The notes beneath the pieces were generated by a model. It was not told the DNA's origin. It did not search any database and saw nothing but the letters and a program-made list of their open reading frames with translations. Source: an uncultured bacterium (GTDB lineage Bacteria; Acidobacteriota; HRBIN11; JAKEFK01). From it: a stretch of DNA of 64,000 nt. Below are positions 46,574-54,712 of this stretch, one piece after another. Position 1 is the first letter of the stretch. Every line of letters starts with the position of its first letter. The stretch spans positions 224,001-288,000 of the forward strand of contig CAVZQN010000006.1 in assembly GCA_963777505.1 (NCBI GenBank). The letters are read 5' to 3'. A program made the position numbers and the translations under genes.

Positions 46574-48826
46574 TCAAACAGTGGCTGCGGGTAAATCCAA
46601 TTCCGCCACGTTCTTGCGAAATTCAATGGCAGGAATTAACAAGGACGCAACCATGCCGCCTTCGGGCGCATTGTGAATCGTAAATTCGTGAGATGTACCA
46701 TACAACGAATCGAGAATTGCGCGGATCGTGGTTAATCCAACTCCTTGTCTAAGCTTATGCAGTTGCGGAAGGCCTGGTCCATTATCTCGAACTTCCATCA
46801 ATAAGCGGTCCTCATCGCGCTTGCAGACAATTTCAATCACGCCCGGACCATTCATTCGTGAAATTCCATGACGAATCGCATTTTCGACCACAGGCTGCCA
46901 AAGAAGATGAGGGACGAGGTTGTTCATAGTTTGCGGCTCAATACTCATTTTGACATGCAGTTTGTCCTGAAATCTCATGTGTTGAATTTCCAAATAACAC
47001 TTCATGTATTCCAGTTCATCTTTCAGCCTTGTTTCCTGGATCGACGTATTTTCCAGAGTTAGCTTCAAAAACTCCTTCAGTCGAAGAAGCATTTCTTCAG
47101 CCGTTTGAACATTTTCATGAAGAAGCTGAGAAATTGAATTCAGGGCATTAAACAAAAAATGTGGGTGCAGTTGCATTCGTAATACATCGATTTGAGCCTG
47201 GAATAACCCACTCTGCAACCGGATCGTATTGAGTTCTTCAGATTTATATTTCCGATAATGATCAATTGCCGCACCGGCTGCCACCATGATCCAGTAAACA
47301 AAAAAGCTAAATGCGAACCGTGACTGGGAAATATTTTGAAACAGGTATTCAAAGTAACCAACGTTAGAAGTGAAAAGCCAGAGTACAAATAGATGGATTG
47401 ATGAAATCGTAAACCAGATTGCTGTACTCAGTGCAAAATGACCTCCAAGAGATTGCAGCAACACTTTACGTTCTATTGGGAACCACCTGGCTGTTCGTAA
47501 AATCAATGGAGTGACTGCCGCCCAACAAATCCACGTGGTTGCTTGGATCATTTGAGTTGTCCAGCTTACGGGATTCGCAAGGTTGTGTGCTTCTCTACCT
47601 GCAAAATAAAATCCCATTAATGTCCAGAATGCGGGAATCCATACCCAGTTCCAAACCGAGTGAATCTTCTTTTTCTTTGGTTGCTCCTGCAATTCAAAAT
47701 ATTTGAAACAGCTTTCGATATCTTTTTCAGGTTGGCGCTGGGACTCTGGTTCAGCACAACGAACTGAAAATGTGAGCATGACGCACCCTGATTGAAAATC
47801 GGATGTTGCTCTCATGTCATAGAACTCTTGCAGGGTTGATCCAATTGTCTCAAAGACCCTGTTATATGCCTCTGGAGAAAGTGCGGAACTGTCAGGCTGA
47901 AAAGAAATTTCAAAATTCAATTTCTTATCTTCCTGTCTGGCTTGAATCTGAATCGATAGGTCTTGCAATGTTGGATTACTGGCTGAAGAAAAGCAGTCAA
48001 TAAAAATTTGCACTGGATGAAAAAGAACAAGAACCGGAACCATTTGATTGTTTAATGGAGAATCGGAGTGGACTTTGAGAGAGATGCTTCTGTTTTTCAG
48101 AATGTTTTCAAGTTCCAGGTATGTCTTAACAAACTCTAATTCCTGTTTTAATGGAACAAACAGAGTCCCTGAGTTTTCAAGGCTGAATCGAAGGAAATTT
48201 CCAAGCCGTGCTATGGCTCGTTCCGCTCTTAATGAATTTTCATGGATCAGTTTCACAATGAAATCAAGAGTTCCATATAAGAATTGCGGATTTAGTTGTT
48301 TCTTGATTTTGTCTAATTTGGTTTGTTTCAACAGCGATTCAAGCCGTGAAGACTTGAGTTCTTCATTCCCATATTTTTTTCTGTATTCAACTGCATGACA
48401 TAACACCAGAATGCCGACATAAATCAACATCCGCCACGAAATATAGTAGATGCAAAACCAATGTTCATTAAGAAGATCTTTCAACAGTGTGTTGGAGGAC
48501 TCAAATTTCCAGCTGATGGTCATTTGAGTAAGCAAATGCAAAATCGAAAATCCGAAAGAAAGTGGCAGGTGGATGGCTGCAAGCAGTTTCCATGAGATGG
48601 CTCCTGCAGGAAAGCGACGTGCCAGCTTTTGGATTGGAATTAAGAAGATCAACCACAAATACCAACCTGAAAGTTCCCAGGCGAACAATTTTGTCCATGG
48701 AAATGGATCAGTTTCGGATCCAAATCTTGAATAAGCTTGAAGCACAAAAATGACAGCAAGGACTGTTGCGATGATGAATGCTAGAGAAACACGTCTGATG
48801 TCCTGAGTCTTGAATCGGAGATGCAT
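46574..48826 (-). CDS. LytS/YehU-family sensor histidine kinase, internally duplicated
   Basis: Two TM + His_kinase units; C-terminal QLHPHFLFNALN, QPVVENAIRHG, DNGPG; N-terminal copy reads QLNPQFLYGTL. Confidence 0.85.
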   Translation of the reverse strand: MHLRFKTQDIRRVSLAFIIATVLAVIFVLQAYSRFGSETDPFPWTKLFAWELSGWYLWLIFLIPIQKLARRFPAGAISWKLLAAIHLPLSFGFSILHLLTQMTISWKFESSNTLLKDLLNEHWFCIYYISWRMLIYVGILVLCHAVEYRKKYGNEELKSSRLESLLKQTKLDKIKKQLNPQFLYGTLDFIVKLIHENSLRAERAIARLGNFLRFSLENSGTLFVPLKQELEFVKTYLELENILKNRSISLKVHSDSPLNNQMVPVLVLFHPVQIFIDCFSSASNPTLQDLSIQIQARQEDKKLNFEISFQPDSSALSPEAYNRVFETIGSTLQEFYDMRATSDFQSGCVMLTFSVRCAEPESQRQPEKDIESCFKYFELQEQPKKKKIHSVWNWVWIPAFWTLMGFYFAGREAHNLANPVSWTTQMIQATTWICWAAVTPLILRTARWFPIERKVLLQSLGGHFALSTAIWFTISSIHLFVLWLFTSNVGYFEYLFQNISQSRFAFSFFVYWIMVAAGAAIDHYRKYKSEELNTIRLQSGLFQAQIDVLRMQLHPHFLFNALNSISQLLHENVQTAEEMLLRLKEFLKLTLENTSIQETRLKDELEYMKCYLEIQHMRFQDKLHVKMSIEPQTMNNLVPHLLWQPVVENAIRHGISRMNGPGVIEIVCKRDEDRLLMEVRDNGPGLPQLHKLRQGVGLTTIRAILDSLYGTSHEFTIHNAPEGGMVASLLIPAIEFRKNVAELDLPAATV

Positions 48827-48971
48827 GGCAGGCCAATATCATACAAAAATATCTCGATAAAAATTTGGAAGAATACTCAAGCGGGACGATTTTGGCGTCA
48901 GAGGGAACTATTGCGACTCTGGACGGAACTCTTTAACGCAAAGTACGCCGAGTTGGATTTAAAAGAAACTA

Positions 48972-49000
48972 TTGACGCCTTCATCACACTTCACTATACT
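48972..49000 (+). promoter_or_regulatory. sigma70 promoter of Cys leader / sat-like operon
   Basis: TTGACG-N17-TATACT. Confidence 0.75.
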
Positions 49001-49009
49001 AAAGTGCGT

Positions 49010-49093
49010 ATGAAGCTTTCCAGACAATATCAGATTTGTAGGTGCTGCTTTTATTGCATCTGTACAAGCCTGGTAGCAGGGTCTGGAGGCTGA
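49010..49093 (+). CDS. Cysteine-rich leader peptide MKLSRQYQICRCCFYCICTSLVAGSGG
   Basis: 27 codons, 5 Cys within codons 10-18; ATG lies 10 nt after the -10 box; overlaps the antiterminator arm. Confidence 0.75.
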   Translation: MKLSRQYQICRCCFYCICTSLVAGSGG

Positions 49094-49197
49094 ACCGGCA
49101 GTCTTAACTAAAAAATCCTGACCCACTATCAGGCGATCCTGATGGTGGGTTTTTTATTTTAGCCCGCTATCGAAAATAAATCGGTAGCGGTTTTTTT
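49069..49197 (+). promoter_or_regulatory. Transcription attenuator: antiterminator plus two tandem intrinsic terminators
   Basis: T1 ACCCACTATCAGG-CGAT-CCTGATGGTGGGT + T-run; T2 CCGCTATCGA-N7-TCGGTAGCGG + T7; 49069-49087 is complementary to 49116-49133. Confidence 0.75.
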
Positions 49198-49209
49198 ATT
49201 GGAGGCACA

Positions 49210-50133
49210 ATGATCTCCCCGCATGGTGGAAACTTAGTCAATCGGATTCCCAATTCTACGGAAGTTGTTCGATGGCACGAATACGCAATATTTCAGCACA
49301 AAATTTTAATCGATGAATTTAGTGCAATGGAACTGGAATTGCTTGCAACCGGTGCATACAGTCCATTAACAGGCTTTATGCAGATTCAGGATTACAGAAG
49401 GGTTCTTCTTGAAGGCCGGTTGAGTTCAGGACTTCAGTGGACTCTTCCGGTGACGTTGTCTGTATCGCGAAGTGAAGCATCGAAGTTGAAGATCGGTGAA
49501 GACATAACGTTGCAGAATCAACAGGGCATCAATCTCGCTGTGATGCGAGTTGACGAAATTTTTCCTGCAGACAAACAGCTCGAAGTTGAAGCGCTATATA
49601 AAGGTGCAGGCCTGTCGCATCCTGGTGTTCTTCATGTTCATCAACAAGAAGAGATATTGCTTGCTGGTCCGATTATTTATCTTGGAACTCGCAAGCCGCA
49701 GGATCGATTTGCCGATTATTATCTCAGTCCTGCTGACACACGATCACATTTTCAGGAGCTTGGATGGAACAGAATTCTTGCATTCGAGCCGCGCAATCCC
49801 AGCATTCCCGGCAATCATTTGCTTTCAAACGCAGCAGATCATTATGATGGCGTGTTTCTTCATACATTGGCCGGCGATTTTTCCGGAAAAGACTTACCGG
49901 CAGATGTGAAAATCCGATGCAGTGAAATCCTTCTTCAAGAATATTATCCGCCACATAAGACTTTACTCGCTGTTTCGCCTTTGATTCTTAGAGGCGCTGG
50001 TTCGCGAGATGTTATTCATGAAGCAATCGTTAGAAAAAATTTTGGCGCAACTCACATGATTGCAGGCGGTGAACATTTGGATCTTGCTGAACAAACTGAA
50101 GTTGATTTCACGCGGCTCGTGGCAACAGCTTAA
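49210..50133 (+). CDS. sat: Sulfate adenylyltransferase homolog, degenerate and C-terminally short
   Basis: PHGGNLV, GAYSPLTGFM, WTLPVTL, HPGV, RKNFGATH are present, but QTRNPxHxxH reads EPRNPSIPGN and GRDH reads GGEH. Confidence 0.75.
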   Translation: MISPHGGNLVNRIPNSTEVVRWHEYAIFQHKILIDEFSAMELELLATGAYSPLTGFMQIQDYRRVLLEGRLSSGLQWTLPVTLSVSRSEASKLKIGEDITLQNQQGINLAVMRVDEIFPADKQLEVEALYKGAGLSHPGVLHVHQQEEILLAGPIIYLGTRKPQDRFADYYLSPADTRSHFQELGWNRILAFEPRNPSIPGNHLLSNAADHYDGVFLHTLAGDFSGKDLPADVKIRCSEILLQEYYPPHKTLLAVSPLILRGAGSRDVIHEAIVRKNFGATHMIAGGEHLDLAEQTEVDFTRLVATA

Positions 50134-50179
50134 CGAACTGAAATCTCATAATGGAATTAGAAGTCATTTCGTTAAAACT

Positions 50180-50250
50180 GCCGCTGTGACTGAGTGGTTA
50201 AGTAGCGGTCTGCAAAACCGCGTACGTCGGTTCAATTCCGGCCAGCGGTT
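50180..50250 (+). tRNA. tRNA-Cys (GCA)
   Basis: GCCGCTG...GCGGT-CTGCAAA-ACCGC...GTCGG-TTCAATT-CCGGC-CAGCGGT-T (U73). Confidence 0.9.
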
Positions 50251-50458
50251 CTTACATCTTAGCGACAACACCCGCGCGTCTCAGCTAGCGCATGCCGCTT
50301 GCATTCAGCTAAGATTTGTTTGTGGCAGGAAATACTCTAATCCGTAGAAGGCTGAGTGCTGGGCAAGTCGCTAGCAAGCGGCACGATTCGCGCGTTGCCG
50401 TTGAATTCCAGCTATAGGCCGCAATGATTGGCGAACACCATAGCCATATTTAGGAACT

Positions 50459-50992
50459 ATGAAAGCTGACGACCTCGAATTCAGATCGAGCCAGAGCCCG
50501 GTCGTGCGGATTTTCTTTTTCGTTTTCGGTCTTTTGCCGCTTTTAGCGCCTTATGAACTTCTCCTTAAACCCAAGTGGAACACGTTTTTCTCTCCGTTCT
50601 TTTTTCTTGCTTTGGTTATTTCGATTGGGGCGGTCGGTGTTACTGTTTTTTTTCTCTCAGCGGCGCTCTTGGGATTAAATAAAGTTGTTCGATTCAATGC
50701 GGCGCAGCGAGAGGTGGTCTATGGTTTCGGAGCGCCGCTTCTCAAGTGGCGAAGGAAACTCGTCCCTTTTGCTCAGATCGTCGATTTACGAGTTGAGACC
50801 CAAACCTGGGATAGTGGCCCAGATACCTATGACCTTAGTCTTGATACGGTGGACGGTCACTCAATCCGGTTTGGAAAATTCGTAACCAGGGATGATGCTG
50901 AGAAGACGCGGACAGCTATACGGACGATCTTGGGGACCGGAATGCCTGTTACGGACATTTTCGATGTTGGAGCTACAAAAGAATCGGATTAA
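50459..50992 (+). CDS. Hypothetical membrane protein (2 TM + soluble beta domain)
   Basis: RBS AGGA; two hydrophobic helices; 177 aa. Confidence 0.6.
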   Translation: MKADDLEFRSSQSPVVRIFFFVFGLLPLLAPYELLLKPKWNTFFSPFFFLALVISIGAVGVTVFFLSAALLGLNKVVRFNAAQREVVYGFGAPLLKWRRKLVPFAQIVDLRVETQTWDSGPDTYDLSLDTVDGHSIRFGKFVTRDDAEKTRTAIRTILGTGMPVTDIFDVGATKESD

Positions 50993-51001
50993 GAAGTGAG
51001 C

Positions 51002-51475
51002 TTAACGAGCCAACAAAGCGTTGATGAGATAAACGAAGAACAAGACGATTCCTAATACAACCAACCCAAAAAAACCGGCGACGACTGCAAGGAAAATCCA
51101 GTGTCGTATTGTGCTTTGTGCTGGTTGTTCTGCGTATTGACGAAACATTGTCATGTTCCGTGTATTTGCTTTAAAGATAAAATCGAAGACATCACCAACG
51201 AACGGAATCGCCCCGATTGTAATATCCAGAAGAGTATTCACAATCATTCGGAGAATGACTATCTTGGGCAGTTTGAATTGAAAGGCGCGAAATAAGAGCA
51301 TCAGACCCATCGCTCCGCTGATGATGTCGCCGGCTCCGGGAATCAGGCCGATTAATGCCTCGGCTCCAAAACGCCAATTCACACCTGGAATCTTAAAAGC
51401 ATTGTCGAGAAACCAGGCAATTTGGTCTAATTGGTTCTTGACCTTTTCTAATTCAAGGTCTTTTTGTTTGTTCAT
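51002..51475 (-). CDS. DUF4112 family membrane protein
   Basis: LDNAFKIPG...RFG...IGLIPGAGD; GAIPFVGDVFD..FKANTRN. Confidence 0.88.
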   Translation of the reverse strand: MNKQKDLELEKVKNQLDQIAWFLDNAFKIPGVNWRFGAEALIGLIPGAGDIISGAMGLMLLFRAFQFKLPKIVILRMIVNTLLDITIGAIPFVGDVFDFIFKANTRNMTMFRQYAEQPAQSTIRHWIFLAVVAGFFGLVVLGIVLFFVYLINALLAR

Positions 51476-51621: not shown

Positions 51622-53241
51622 ATGGATGCGTATTACGATGATCTAATTGAATATGTTCTTGAAGAACTTCCGGAGGACCGTTATCTTCAACTTCGCACAC
51701 ATCTAGATTCAGGATGCGTCGAGTGTAATAAGGAAGTTCGGCAGCTTCAAGAAGCATTCCATTTTCTACCTGGCGCTCTTCCTGCCTATAAGATGAAGGC
51801 AGAACTGAAGACAAAATTACTGGATGCAATCAATTCAGAAAGTGTTCAGGGAGTTGGTTTGCAATCCAGAATGCAGCATTCTTTAAAAGTTGCAACTGAT
51901 TTGCGAGTTGTTCGCACAACGGAAACGATGGATTCAGAAAAACCATTTGAACAATCTTCAATTCGTAACATCCGGATAGCGGTTTTGTATTTTGAAAATC
52001 TGAGTGAGGAAAAAGAAAACGATTATTTTCGTGCTGGTATGACTGAAGACATTATTACAGAACTGTCTAAAGTGCGCGCTTGGGAAGTTCGGCCTCGAAC
52101 TCAGGTTGTTCAGTTTAAGGATCAGTCGATTGACATCCGTAATATTGGCCAAGATCTCGGAGTGACGCATGTTCTTCATGGAAGTATCCGTAAGTCAGGG
52201 AATAGGCTGCGGATTTCGTCACATCTTGTCGACGCATCGAGCGCATCTTCAGTTTGGAGCGAACGCTACGATAGAGATTTAAGCGATGTTTTTGAAATAC
52301 AAGCTGAAATTGCTCAGAAAATTGCGGCCGCTTTAAAGGTGCATCTTACTCAAGCAGAACAAAAACAAATTCAAACGCCACAGACTAAAAGCTTGCAAGC
52401 ATATGATCAATATCTTCGTGGCCGCGAAAGCATCTTTCTGCTTACCCGCGAAGGCATCGATACCGCGATTACATATTTTGATAATGCAATAAGAATCGAT
52501 GCGCGGTACGCGATGGCTTATGCAGGTTTGGCCCAGGCTTATGCATTAAAGCTCAGTTTTTTTGGAGGCTCTGAAGAACTTGCCGACCGTGCGATTGAAA
52601 GCGCGAAACGAGCTTTAAATCTGGATCCTGATCAAGCCCAGGCTGAAGCCGCGCTGGGCCTTTCCTATTTATTAAAACGCATGAGTGCCGAAGCCACTGA
52701 AGCCTGCAAACGCGCAATCGAACTGAATCCGTTGGACTCGCTTGCACAATGGATTTCAGGAAGGCTTTTTTACCGTTTGAATCAATATGAAGAAGCCATC
52801 GAACGATTTCAAAAAACTGTTGAACTTGTTCCCGATTTCTATACGGCCTATTCCGATTTAGCTCAAGCTTATGAAAACCTTGGTAATAAGGAATCCGCAC
52901 AGGAAATGCGAAAGAGAACTATTGAAGCCTGCAAAAGTTATTTGAAAACGGATCCAAATGAAGCGCGTGCTCATATATTTCTGGCCACAGCAAGCGCATG
53001 GCTTGGAGATAAAGAGTCAGCATTAAAAGCAGGAAAGAATGCGGAGGAATTAAGTCCGGATGATCCGGTAATGATGTACAATCTTGCCTGCCTTTATAGC
53101 CTTCTCAATGAGGGCGATCTTGCGGTTGAATGGCTAAAAAAATCGGTACAGCACGGCAGAAGAGATTTTGAGTGGATGAAGCGTGATCCTGCTTTAATGA
53201 ATATCCGCAATCATCCCGTTTATCTTGAATTGATTCAGTAG
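51622..53241 (+). CDS. Zinc-finger anti-sigma-like N-terminus + TolB-like domain + TPR protein
   Basis: HLDSGCVEC; IAVLYFENLS...YFRAGMTEDIITEL; WSERYDR; multiple TPRs. Confidence 0.75.
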   Translation: MDAYYDDLIEYVLEELPEDRYLQLRTHLDSGCVECNKEVRQLQEAFHFLPGALPAYKMKAELKTKLLDAINSESVQGVGLQSRMQHSLKVATDLRVVRTTETMDSEKPFEQSSIRNIRIAVLYFENLSEEKENDYFRAGMTEDIITELSKVRAWEVRPRTQVVQFKDQSIDIRNIGQDLGVTHVLHGSIRKSGNRLRISSHLVDASSASSVWSERYDRDLSDVFEIQAEIAQKIAAALKVHLTQAEQKQIQTPQTKSLQAYDQYLRGRESIFLLTREGIDTAITYFDNAIRIDARYAMAYAGLAQAYALKLSFFGGSEELADRAIESAKRALNLDPDQAQAEAALGLSYLLKRMSAEATEACKRAIELNPLDSLAQWISGRLFYRLNQYEEAIERFQKTVELVPDFYTAYSDLAQAYENLGNKESAQEMRKRTIEACKSYLKTDPNEARAHIFLATASAWLGDKESALKAGKNAEELSPDDPVMMYNLACLYSLLNEGDLAVEWLKKSVQHGRRDFEWMKRDPALMNIRNHPVYLELIQ

Positions 53242-53332: not shown

Positions 53333-54712
53333 ATGTACTTCAAACAATTTTATCTTGGTTGTCTTGCACATGCTTCCTACTTAATTGGTGATGAAGGACA
53401 AGCCGTTGTTGTGGATCCTCAAAGAGATGTAGATGAATATATTGAGGAAGCGTCAAAACAAGGTTTGAAAATTTCACATGTAATTGAAACGCACTTACAT
53501 GCAGATTTTGTTTCCGGACATCGCGAATTGGCCAAGCGAACGGGAGCCCAAATTTACTTTGGTGCGCGAGCAAATGCTGAATTCGAACACATCGCAGTGA
53601 AAGAAGGTGATGAAGTGCGGATCGGCAAAGTTGTGCTTCGATTTCTTGAAACTCCAGGACATACTCCGGAATCTATTTCAATACTTGTAATCGATGAAAA
53701 TGAATCGAAAGATCCGGCCGCCGTATTAACAGGAGATACACTCTTTATTGGAGATGTAGGTAGACCCGATTTGCTGGGTGCGCGCATGAGCGCTGCTGAA
53801 TTAGCGGGCATGCTTTATGATTCATTGCACAACAAACTTTTGAAATTGCCAGACTCAGTGAAAGTGTTTCCTGCTCATGGCGCTGGTTCGATGTGCGGTC
53901 GAAATATTTCAAGTGAGCGGAGTTCAACAATCGGCGAACAGCGGAAAGTGAACTATGCGCTTCAACCGATGGCGCGTGATGAATTCATCCGCATTATGAC
54001 AACCGATTTACCCGAGGCTCCAGCATACTTCAGTGAAGATGTGCAGTTGAATCGTAAAGGTCCAGCAATCCTGGAAGAACTTCCGCCGGTTGAAGCGCTT
54101 TCACCACAGCAAGTTAATGAAAAGCGAAATGAATGTTTAATTTTAGATACACGCCCTTCTGATCAGTTCGGTGTCGGTCATATTCCCGGATCGCTGAACA
54201 TTGGTTTAGGTGGACAATTTGCAACATGGGCTGGAACTCTGATTCCAATTAATACTCCATTTATTATTGTTGCGGAAACGGAGGAGCATGTTAAAGAAAG
54301 CAGGATCCGTTTAGCGCGAGTCGGACATGAAAATGTGATCGGCTATCTGGCTGGTGGAATTTTAGCGTGGTATCAAGCTGGATTTCCAATTGCAAGCACC
54401 GAACAAATCACGGTTCAGGAATTACAGCAAAGAATTGCAGAAGGTTCGGTGGATCAAGTGGTTGATGTTAGACGAGTGGGAGAATGGAATTCAGGTCACA
54501 TTTCAAAAGCGACTCATATTCCATTGAATACCCTGGCCAAGGAAGTTGTATCCAAATTGGATCCTGACAAAAAAACAGTCGCAATCTGCGCAGGTGGATA
54601 CCGTTCGTCAATGGCAACCAGTATTCTCGAGCAGCTCGGATATACCCGCATCTCGAACGTCATTGGCGGTATGAATGCATGGAGCACCTCCAAGCTGGAA
54701 GTGGTAAACTAA
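53333..54712 (+). CDS. MBL-fold hydrolase with rhodanese domains (persulfide dioxygenase/sulfurtransferase-like)
   Basis: ETHLHADFVSG, TPGHTPES, GDTLFIGDVGRPDL, C-terminal CAGGYRS. Confidence 0.9.
   Translation: MYFKQFYLGCLAHASYLIGDEGQAVVVDPQRDVDEYIEEASKQGLKISHVIETHLHADFVSGHRELAKRTGAQIYFGARANAEFEHIAVKEGDEVRIGKVVLRFLETPGHTPESISILVIDENESKDPAAVLTGDTLFIGDVGRPDLLGARMSAAELAGMLYDSLHNKLLKLPDSVKVFPAHGAGSMCGRNISSERSSTIGEQRKVNYALQPMARDEFIRIMTTDLPEAPAYFSEDVQLNRKGPAILEELPPVEALSPQQVNEKRNECLILDTRPSDQFGVGHIPGSLNIGLGGQFATWAGTLIPINTPFIIVAETEEHVKESRIRLARVGHENVIGYLAGGILAWYQAGFPIASTEQITVQELQQRIAEGSVDQVVDVRRVGEWNSGHISKATHIPLNTLAKEVVSKLDPDKKTVAICAGGYRSSMATSILEQLGYTRISNVIGGMNAWSTSKLEVVN

Follow-up and report, generated by a model that had tools for sequence, protein, structure and literature searches.

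The stretch of DNA analysed here (the window, 64,000 nucleotides in length) belongs to the genome of a soil Acidobacteriota (G000; 5.2 Mb, 95.9% complete). It carries, ahead of a gene for a short ATP-sulfurylase homologue, a leader with a small cysteine-rich open reading frame (ORF) followed by two intrinsic terminators in tandem. We conclude with reasonable confidence that this locus is a ribosome-mediated (leader-peptide) transcription attenuator sensing Cys-tRNA(Cys). The evidence for this attenuator is entirely computational. It comprises the parts of such a device, pairings between these parts that are mutually exclusive, their conservation in the same-genus genome G001, which is the sole close relative genome available for comparison, and a trp counterpart elsewhere in G000. 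The geometry of the trp and his attenuators, which the original prediction had recognised in this leader, is borne out by the alternative folds, by chance controls, by the conservation in G001 and by the trp leader of G000.

All elements of the leader lie on the + strand. The locus opens with a sigma-70-type promoter, TTGACG-17-TATACT (48972–49000; −35 hexamer at 48972–48977 and −10 hexamer at 48995–49000, both from a promoter scan), present as first described and matching the consensus at 10 of 12 positions. Taken alone this match is not significant (two in the 800-nt region, compared with 1.7 expected from shuffled sequences). The ATG of the leader ORF (49010–49012) is close to the −10 hexamer, as had been claimed, although the distance is 9 nt rather than 10 nt. 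From this position a near-leaderless start is predicted, with a 5′ untranslated region of about 2–4 nt. The leader ORF (49010–49093) comprises 27 codons and a TGA (49091–49093) and encodes MKLSRQYQICRCCFYCICTSLVAGSGG. The expected concentration of five cysteines in nine codons is found: the putative regulatory Cys codons are codons 10, 12, 13, 16 and 18 (TGT, TGC, TGC, TGC and TGT; 49037–49063). Among the ORFs of 10–60 amino acids in the crudely defined intergenic DNA of G000, the leader ORF is the only one with at least five Cys in nine codons, and 12 ORFs have at least four. The downstream gene has its own GGAGG Shine–Dalgarno sequence (49201–49205) in front of its ATG at 49210. The upstream neighbour, a histidine kinase gene, is divergent, so the two terminators are not those of a gene lying upstream.

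The 3′ end of the leader ORF (segment 2, 49069–49087) had been proposed to pair with the 5′ arm of a terminator and its flank (49116–49133). This helix, which we call antiterminator 1 (49069–49087 : 49116–49133), is indeed strong (−27.8 kcal/mol). Its energy was reached by none of 20 000 random genomic 25-mers and by one of 5000 shuffles, and segment 2 gives the best pairing with the terminator arm among all leader windows. Terminator 1 (49116–49159; stem 49120–49133/49138–49151, −23.4 kcal/mol, followed by a U tract) had been described as a 13-bp U-tailed hairpin; the hairpin is present, with 14 pairs when G–U is counted, and antiterminator 1 additionally uses its 5′ flank, 49116–49119. Segment 2 has an alternative partner in segment 1 (49019–49033), the 5′ strand of an anti-antiterminator, which consists of TCCAGAC (49019–49025) and TATCAG (49028–49033). 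Nor does terminator 1 stand alone, as had been supposed: a second U-tailed hairpin, terminator 2 (49164–49197; stem 49164–49173/49181–49190, 10 pairs, −15.5 kcal/mol), lies beyond the region first considered. The 3′ arm of terminator 1 can pair with the 5′ side of terminator 2 to form antiterminator 2 (49140–49172; 49140–49151 : 49161–49172, 12 pairs, −18.0 kcal/mol), and 19 of 20 000 random genomic 19-mers pair equally well with this 3′ arm. In total, there are four terminator-like sites in 800 nt, compared with 0.5 expected. On the opposite strand, the terminator 1 5′ arm, taken as its reverse complement together with the A run, scores as a weak terminator of six pairs (49117–49133, −); no minus-strand gene ends there.

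Left to itself, the RNA folds into the segment 1:2 helix together with terminators 1 and 2 (minimum free energy of −74.7 kcal/mol for 49007–49198), and the stability of 49007–49209 is well beyond that of shuffled sequences (z = −6.6). In the 203-nt fold the GGAGG of the downstream gene is weakly paired (6 bp with 49015–49020), and the counterpart of this pairing in G001 has, as judged by eye, no more than about four complementary bases. We then represented the ribosome as a mask of 30 nt on a transcript truncated where the 5′ arm of terminator 1 ends. With the A site at Cys codon 10, 12, 13 or 16, antiterminator 1 becomes the minimum-free-energy fold; with the A site at codon 18 it forms only in part, and a mask at the stop codon abolishes it. 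Folding with and without the mask, which the original prediction had put forward as a check, thus gives stall and stop-codon states that differ as the model requires. The claim that stalling frees the antiterminator and that complete translation masks it is upheld by these folds, except that the effect of stalling is exerted mainly by covering 49019–49033, a segment that had been overlooked. When antiterminator 1 is forced, antiterminator 2 replaces terminator 2 in the minimum-free-energy fold.

The following course of events would fit these folds. Transcription would start a few nucleotides before 49010 and a ribosome would translate the 27-codon leader. With ample Cys-tRNA, the ribosome would reach the TGA and cover the 3′ half of segment 2, terminators 1 and 2 would form and transcription would stop; if no ribosome were present, segment 1 would hold segment 2 and termination would follow likewise. 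With scarce Cys-tRNA, the ribosome would stall at the first Cys codons (49037–49048) and cover segment 1, leaving segment 2 to pair with the emerging 5′ arm of terminator 1. The freed 3′ arm of terminator 1 could take the 5′ arm of terminator 2, and RNA polymerase would continue into the ATP-sulfurylase-like gene and perhaps also into the tRNA-Cys gene that follows. The transcription start, the translation of the ORF, the stalling and the cysteine-dependent read-through are inferred; the relay between the two terminators and translation from the near-leaderless start are to be read in the same conditional sense. Since the arms of the two terminators look alike, such a relay is possible. It suggests that a single sensing event could be passed on through the second terminator, which would mean very low leakage. 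We know of no description of a two-terminator relay in leader-peptide attenuators, although no literature search was aimed at the relay.

Conservation follows the helices closely. Among the 13 species genomes of the class, the leader and the short gene were found only in G000 and G001, and a BLAST search of the same genomes with the 251-nt leader gave, beyond these two, only matches with E ≥ 0.02. The promoter of G001 reads TTGACT-17-TATACT, and the 9 nt preceding its ATG are identical to those of G000. Its leader ORF has 28 codons (MKYSRQDQVHCYCICCCIRLRLVARSGD) and differs from that of G000 by an in-frame indel across which the frame stays open. It again has five Cys codons, at shifted positions (11, 13, 15, 16 and 17), and in both genomes the first of them lies 32 nt upstream of segment 2. 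The identity between the two genomes is 80–100% in segments 1 and 2 and in both terminators; it falls to 50% in the Cys stretch and to 46% in the linker that follows the stop codon, both of which contain indels. The residues of the leader peptide that are conserved, SRQ and L-V-A-x-S-G, coincide exactly with the codons of the pairing segments. Over the six helices, G001 retains 61 of the 65 pairs (12 of 13 for segment 1:2, 14 of 16 for antiterminator 1 and 10 of 10 for terminator 2), and all 14 pairs of terminator 1 are identical. Taken as a whole, the leader shows 80% identity (167 of 210 aligned bases), compared with 63% for the gene (576 of 909 bases; 58% for the protein) and about 55% for the flanks. 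The masking logic is reproduced in the G001 leader, in which antiterminator 1 remains the fold of minimum free energy even when terminator 1 is complete.

Related sequence was also found in 20 runs from 15 studies, mostly of soil, and four of these runs (X1, X9, X17 and X20), all represented by short contigs, were compared with the window. In X17 the leader differs at two of 151 positions and the gene at 10 of 151; in X9 the corresponding figures are two of 164 and seven of 109; in X1 the leader differs at one of 217 positions and the gene is outside the cover of the contig. When X17 and X9 are pooled, the leader shows four differences in 315 positions and the gene 17 in 260 (Fisher p = 0.001), a comparison to which the caveat applies that the leader and gene contigs of one run may come from different strains. 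The X9 contig diverges upstream, yet still reads TTGACG and a 17-nt spacer before TATACT. The X20 contig comes from a metatranscriptome (RNA library); it spans 49054–49160 and continues into a 5′ arm like that of terminator 2. The ten letters before 49054 read in frame S-C-C-C-I-C, which is a third Cys arrangement if there is no indel and if the nine letters preceding these ten are adapter. We take X20 as a weak hint of transcription; against its use in support of the attenuator stand the possibility that it is DNA carry-over and the fact that contigs reveal neither transcript starts nor ends.

Traces of the leader are also left in protein records. Among 18 relatives of the downstream protein, three (P0008, P0011 and P0012) are miscalled from an upstream start and begin with (M)VGFLFCPLSK, the sequence obtained when the terminator 1 3′ arm, the U tract and the terminator 2 5′ arm of G001 are translated. 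Two others (P0010 and P0018) begin with MAGFLFGGDK, which fits the terminator 2 3′ arm, the U tract and GGAGG. Because five proteins carry such terminator-derived N-termini, it seems that at least five further relatives have the tandem terminators. As the gene callers started inside the leader, public protein records can leak upstream regulatory sequence.

We may wonder at this stage whether the transcript from 49007 to about 49155 is simply a small RNA or a small-protein gene, for example one for a Cys-rich, metal- or redox-active peptide of 27 amino acids. The terminators would then end this small gene, and the downstream gene would use an unseen promoter or leaky read-through. A strong promoter, two strong terminators, a very stably folded RNA (z = −6.6) and an ORF that stays open in G001 across an in-frame indel would all suit such a gene. 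However, the conservation of the peptide is confined to the codons of the pairing segments, while the Cys positions shift among G000, G001 and X20, and the 3′ end of the ORF is complementary to a terminator arm far beyond chance. Moreover, only 9 nt separate the U tract of terminator 2 from GGAGG, which leaves no room for a separate promoter, and a scan of 48600–49400 found no other promoter on the + strand. We therefore consider a self-standing small gene unlikely.

An RNA switch worked by a protein, a small molecule or uncharged tRNA, in which the Cys-rich frame would be incidental, appears to us no more probable than the small gene. It would account for the strong conservation of the helices, the translation of the leader ORF is only predicted, and the leader ATG is not preceded by a Shine–Dalgarno sequence. 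On the other hand, an Rfam search of 48600–49500 at E ≤ 10 returned chance-level matches only (the best with 24.7 bits, compared with a threshold of 59), the T-box is not among the eight matches listed, and at the gathering score the whole window gave nothing besides two tRNAs. In addition, each of the two species has five in-frame Cys codons, which occupy different positions within the least conserved stretch (50%), their first member remains 32 nt from segment 2 in both genomes, and the Cys richness of the frame is unmatched among the intergenic short ORFs of G000.

The reading as a leader-peptide attenuator also finds a parallel within the same genome. We scanned the whole of G000 for short ORFs that contain an amino-acid cluster and have a terminator no more than 170 nt away, and obtained four matches: the Cys leader, a Trp leader and two that resemble the 3′ ends of genes. 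The trp leader (G000:C8, L084 604–740, outside the window; MIYCSTINHYYWWYRY) has two tandem Trp codons and a 13-pair U-tailed terminator, directly precedes trpE-trpG-trpD and matches no Rfam family. Unmasked, it forms its segment 1:2 helix and the terminator; with a ribosome stalled at the two Trp codons it forms the antiterminator, and with a ribosome at the stop codon the terminator. This apparent trp leader-peptide attenuator of the classical type points the same way, namely that the G000 lineage uses leader-peptide control.

The gene that would be regulated (49210–50133, +) encodes a 307-amino-acid ATP-sulfurylase homologue with a PUA_2 domain and positions 1–125 of the 212 positions of PF01747; its NCBIfam score is 256.9, compared with a cut-off of 387. 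It belongs to a short family with 18 relatives (P0001–P0018, as 90% clusters; 301–326 amino acids, 58–97% identity), one member of which is recorded from an Acidobacteriota metagenome-assembled genome. The canonical enzymes are set apart (at most 44% identity and at least 376 amino acids), and a look-up of the 307-amino-acid protein in the ESM Atlas returned generic ATP-sulfurylase clusters only. In ATP sulfurylase the QxRNPxHxxH and GRDHAG motifs are essential, and HxxH is the nucleotide-binding motif. When the short family is compared with solved enzymes and four canonical sequences, RNP is kept in all 12 members aligned, the HxxH position reads [ILM]PG[NT] or ISGN in 12 of 12, and the GRD position is a variable triplet in 12 of 12; the proteins end about 90 residues early, so that the C-terminal third is absent. 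Since the remaining sequence is highly conserved, the product is a maintained protein, although probably not an ATP sulfurylase. The sulfate-assimilation homologue announced downstream of the leader is hence present as a homologue, although with HxxH and GRD lost it is probably not a working enzyme.

The sulfur genes of these genomes were also surveyed. Above cut-off, G000 has no other PF01747 match and no PF01507 (cysH/cysD), APS kinase, NIR_SIR sulfite reductase or cysE; two cysK/M-like genes fall just below cut-off, and a sulfate/thiosulfate-binding protein is present. G001 shows a marginal PF01507 match, a sulfate/thiosulfate-binding protein and no NIR_SIR match, APS kinase not having been searched for in this genome. 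Both PF01507 and NIR_SIR are present in G003, from a sister genus. To judge from this gene content, the genus may be living on thiosulfate or on reduced or organic sulfur.

A Cys-rich ORF directly before an enzyme-like gene, as a pair kept in two species, could also be the precursor of a modified Cys-rich peptide, with the ATP-sulfurylase-like protein as its modifying enzyme and the terminators setting the ratio between the two. This is very improbable: the putative core sequence is not conserved; no conserved protease, transporter or maturation gene stands beside the pair, the neighbours in G001 being DUF4112 and MBL-rhodanese genes; the enzyme-like protein is without the nucleotide-binding HxxH; and the complementarity between ORF and terminator would have no role. 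Finally, a chance coincidence of a Cys-rich frame with ordinary terminators, which the chance-level promoter match (2 versus 1.7 expected) would allow, can practically be dismissed for an ORF that is unique in G000, recurs in the sister species and is missing upstream of 45 other sat genes, whose pairing is reached by none of 20 000 genomic 25-mers and whose leader is more conserved than the gene.

The attenuator appears to be narrowly distributed. Among 47 sat-family genes of the phylum, only those of G000 and G001 have, within 500 nt upstream, a short ORF with at least three Cys in nine codons. The sample of the phylum comprises 401 genomes and yielded no further short form; its tally takes in an unpublished genome (G058), which adds one canonical match only. 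A scan of genome contigs for orthologues returned G001 and four canonical sat genes only. A metagenome scan gave 18 loci, all at most 41% identical and hence canonical, the peptide patterns having evidently missed the contigs that encode P0002, P0005 and others. The leader being found at none of the 45 canonical sat loci, it looks like an invention of the genus that is tied to the degenerate gene. The comparison of related sat upstream regions, suggested along with the original prediction, thus yielded Cys codons and stems in G001, conserved but without covariation.

Two other Cys-rich frames were considered and set aside. The first, in G005 (same family, other genus; locus L046 1466–1582), begins MKQYVDHNVVHHCRCCHFYCSLG and contains the Cys run CRCCHFYC; neither a terminator nor a sulfur gene lies behind it, and as it was found by matching the Cys-codon stretch of the query its Cys richness is treated as chance. 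The L046 ORF starts 3 nt past a TATAGT, and its BLAST E-value is 0.58. The second, in L044, is a Cys-rich short ORF that lies out of frame within a gene of 246 amino acids and is likewise a chance find.

Several observations weigh against attenuation. In G000, addition of the 3′ arm of terminator 1 makes this terminator the fold of minimum free energy wherever the ribosome stalls, and under the same ribosome mask the ON state has −55.1 kcal/mol compared with −58.6 for the OFF state. As terminator 1 wins once complete, the antiterminator must act kinetically, by forming first, and this is the accepted view for the Escherichia coli trp leader. TCCAGAC remains exposed when the stall lies at codons 12 to 18, and with the stall at codon 18 the mask also takes in part of segment 2. 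The masking logic fits the first Cys codons best and the last ones less well. In G001, the energies favour terminator 2 (−19.5) over antiterminator 2 (−17.4), so that the relay is without energy support in that genome. Full orthologous leaders number two only. Of the 65 pairs, four carry a change on one side yet still pair, four are lost at the ends of helices, and in none have both partners changed; what supports the model here is strong conservation and not covariation. No Shine–Dalgarno sequence precedes the predicted near-leaderless start. The regulated protein is without the catalytic HxxH and GRD motifs, and searches of G000 (95.9% complete) found neither cysH/cysD nor cysC nor sulfite reductase. 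Lastly, no Cys-cluster leader stands upstream of the 45 canonical sat genes, and two of 30 sbp genes in the phylum sample have a Cys short ORF upstream that is weak and chance-like.

The classical leader-peptide attenuators are those of trpL and hisL of E. coli and Salmonella and of the thr, leu, ilv and pheA leaders. Comparative surveys of such leaders have been published (PMC1262725; PMC2965389). The window leader resembles the classical attenuators in its clustered codons for the sensed amino acid, its segment 1:2, 2:3 and 3:4 alternatives, its intrinsic terminator, a stop codon that would let a finishing ribosome block the antiterminator, and its three-state logic. It differs from them in sensing Cys, as we propose, in starting near the predicted 5′ end without a Shine–Dalgarno sequence, in belonging to the Acidobacteriota, in having two consecutive look-alike terminators, both of which one switch may flip, and in a target that is no recognisable biosynthetic enzyme. 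It is a non-homologous version of the textbook mechanism, and a new one, in a phylum from which such control is not known to have been described.

Other parallels involve cysteine itself. The polycysteine leaderless ORFs of mycobacteria, known as the 'Cys ribulon', regulate by exposing a ribosome-binding site (Canestrari et al., 2020; bioRxiv 10.1101/834739). They share with the window leader a short ORF rich in Cys codons in front of genes linked to sulfur or cysteine, one that is leaderless in mycobacteria and predicted to be nearly so in the window, and a ribosome that, when paused in the Cys tract, would remodel the downstream RNA. Their control is translational, whereas the window has two U-tailed terminators and a weakly paired GGAGG, and there is no sequence relationship. 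The regulatory Cys codons of Mycobacterium tuberculosis are likewise cited as translation attenuation (PMC13236596). In Actinobacteria, leader peptides with Cys runs precede sulfur amino-acid genes without a conserved terminator hairpin, and Rho has been suggested (Seliverstov et al., 2005; PMC1262725); in the window leader, by contrast, the terminators are the best-conserved part.

A further counterpart is the uORFC-8-2 motif, which stands before cysS in Rhodobacterales and is predicted to be a ribosome-mediated attenuator, with two Cys codons and an intrinsic terminator (Brewer et al., 2021; PMC8632094). The two leaders have in common Cys codons inside the first stem and the terminal U run of an intrinsic terminator. 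In uORFC-8-2 there are two tandem Cys codons near positions 14–15, a single terminator and a cysS target, within one alphaproteobacterial order, whereas the window leader has five Cys codons, two terminators and an ATP-sulfurylase-like target, and occurs in Acidobacteriota. For the Acidobacteria, a 2010 survey leaves almost all predicted attenuators without an assigned function (PMC2965389), and our full-text literature search found no paper describing a Cys leader attenuator in this group. The original statement that no terminator-type Cys attenuator was known in the lineage accordingly stands for the Acidobacteria within the scope of that search, with the addition that one has been predicted for Rhodobacterales cysS (PMC8632094).

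A tRNA-Cys gene (GCA anticodon; 50180–50251, +, identified as a tRNA match) lies 47 nt 3′ of the regulated gene. Neither a promoter nor a terminator is predicted in 49900–50500, and co-transcription of the tRNA with the regulated gene is possible in G000. The window copy is an extra one: a second, housekeeping-like copy is present in G000 on C11 (G000:C11:85572-85644), and this copy and the sole copy of G001 (G001:C4:130478-130529) are each 81% identical to it. As the G001 leader has no tRNA near it, the tRNA-Cys cannot belong to the ancestral design.

Put together, these elements would make a more elaborate device, which we advance tentatively and rate well below attenuation as such. In it, one stall at a Cys codon would set off four helix exchanges across six segments and disarm both terminators. 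This would turn on a conserved, catalytically dead relative of ATP sulfurylase, with a new role in cysteine starvation, along with a divergent extra tRNA-Cys, in a genus in which no sulfate-reduction genes were found. If this is true, the sensor of G000 would raise the supply of the very tRNA that it reads. The leader as such would mark 18 clusters of motif-less short ATP-sulfurylase homologues as wanted when cysteine is short. The control device is predicted in the Acidobacteriota, a phylum that is abundant in soil and hardly studied genetically.

Finally, a few features of the neighbourhood should be noted. The tRNA-Cys gene is followed by an ORF of 177 amino acids (50459–50992) without a Pfam or NCBIfam match. 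As G001 has neither the tRNA-Cys nor this ORF at the corresponding place, the two may represent an insertion in G000. A DUF4112 gene is convergent to the regulated gene in both genomes (51002–51475, −, in the window; locus L002 2384–2920, −, in G001), and is followed by a gene for a persulfide-dioxygenase-like fusion of MBL-fold and rhodanese domains (53333–54712, +, in the window; L002 3127–3888, +, in G001). The order of DUF4112 and MBL-rhodanese genes is thus common to G000 and G001, with a TPR gene (51622–53241) inserted between them in G000.

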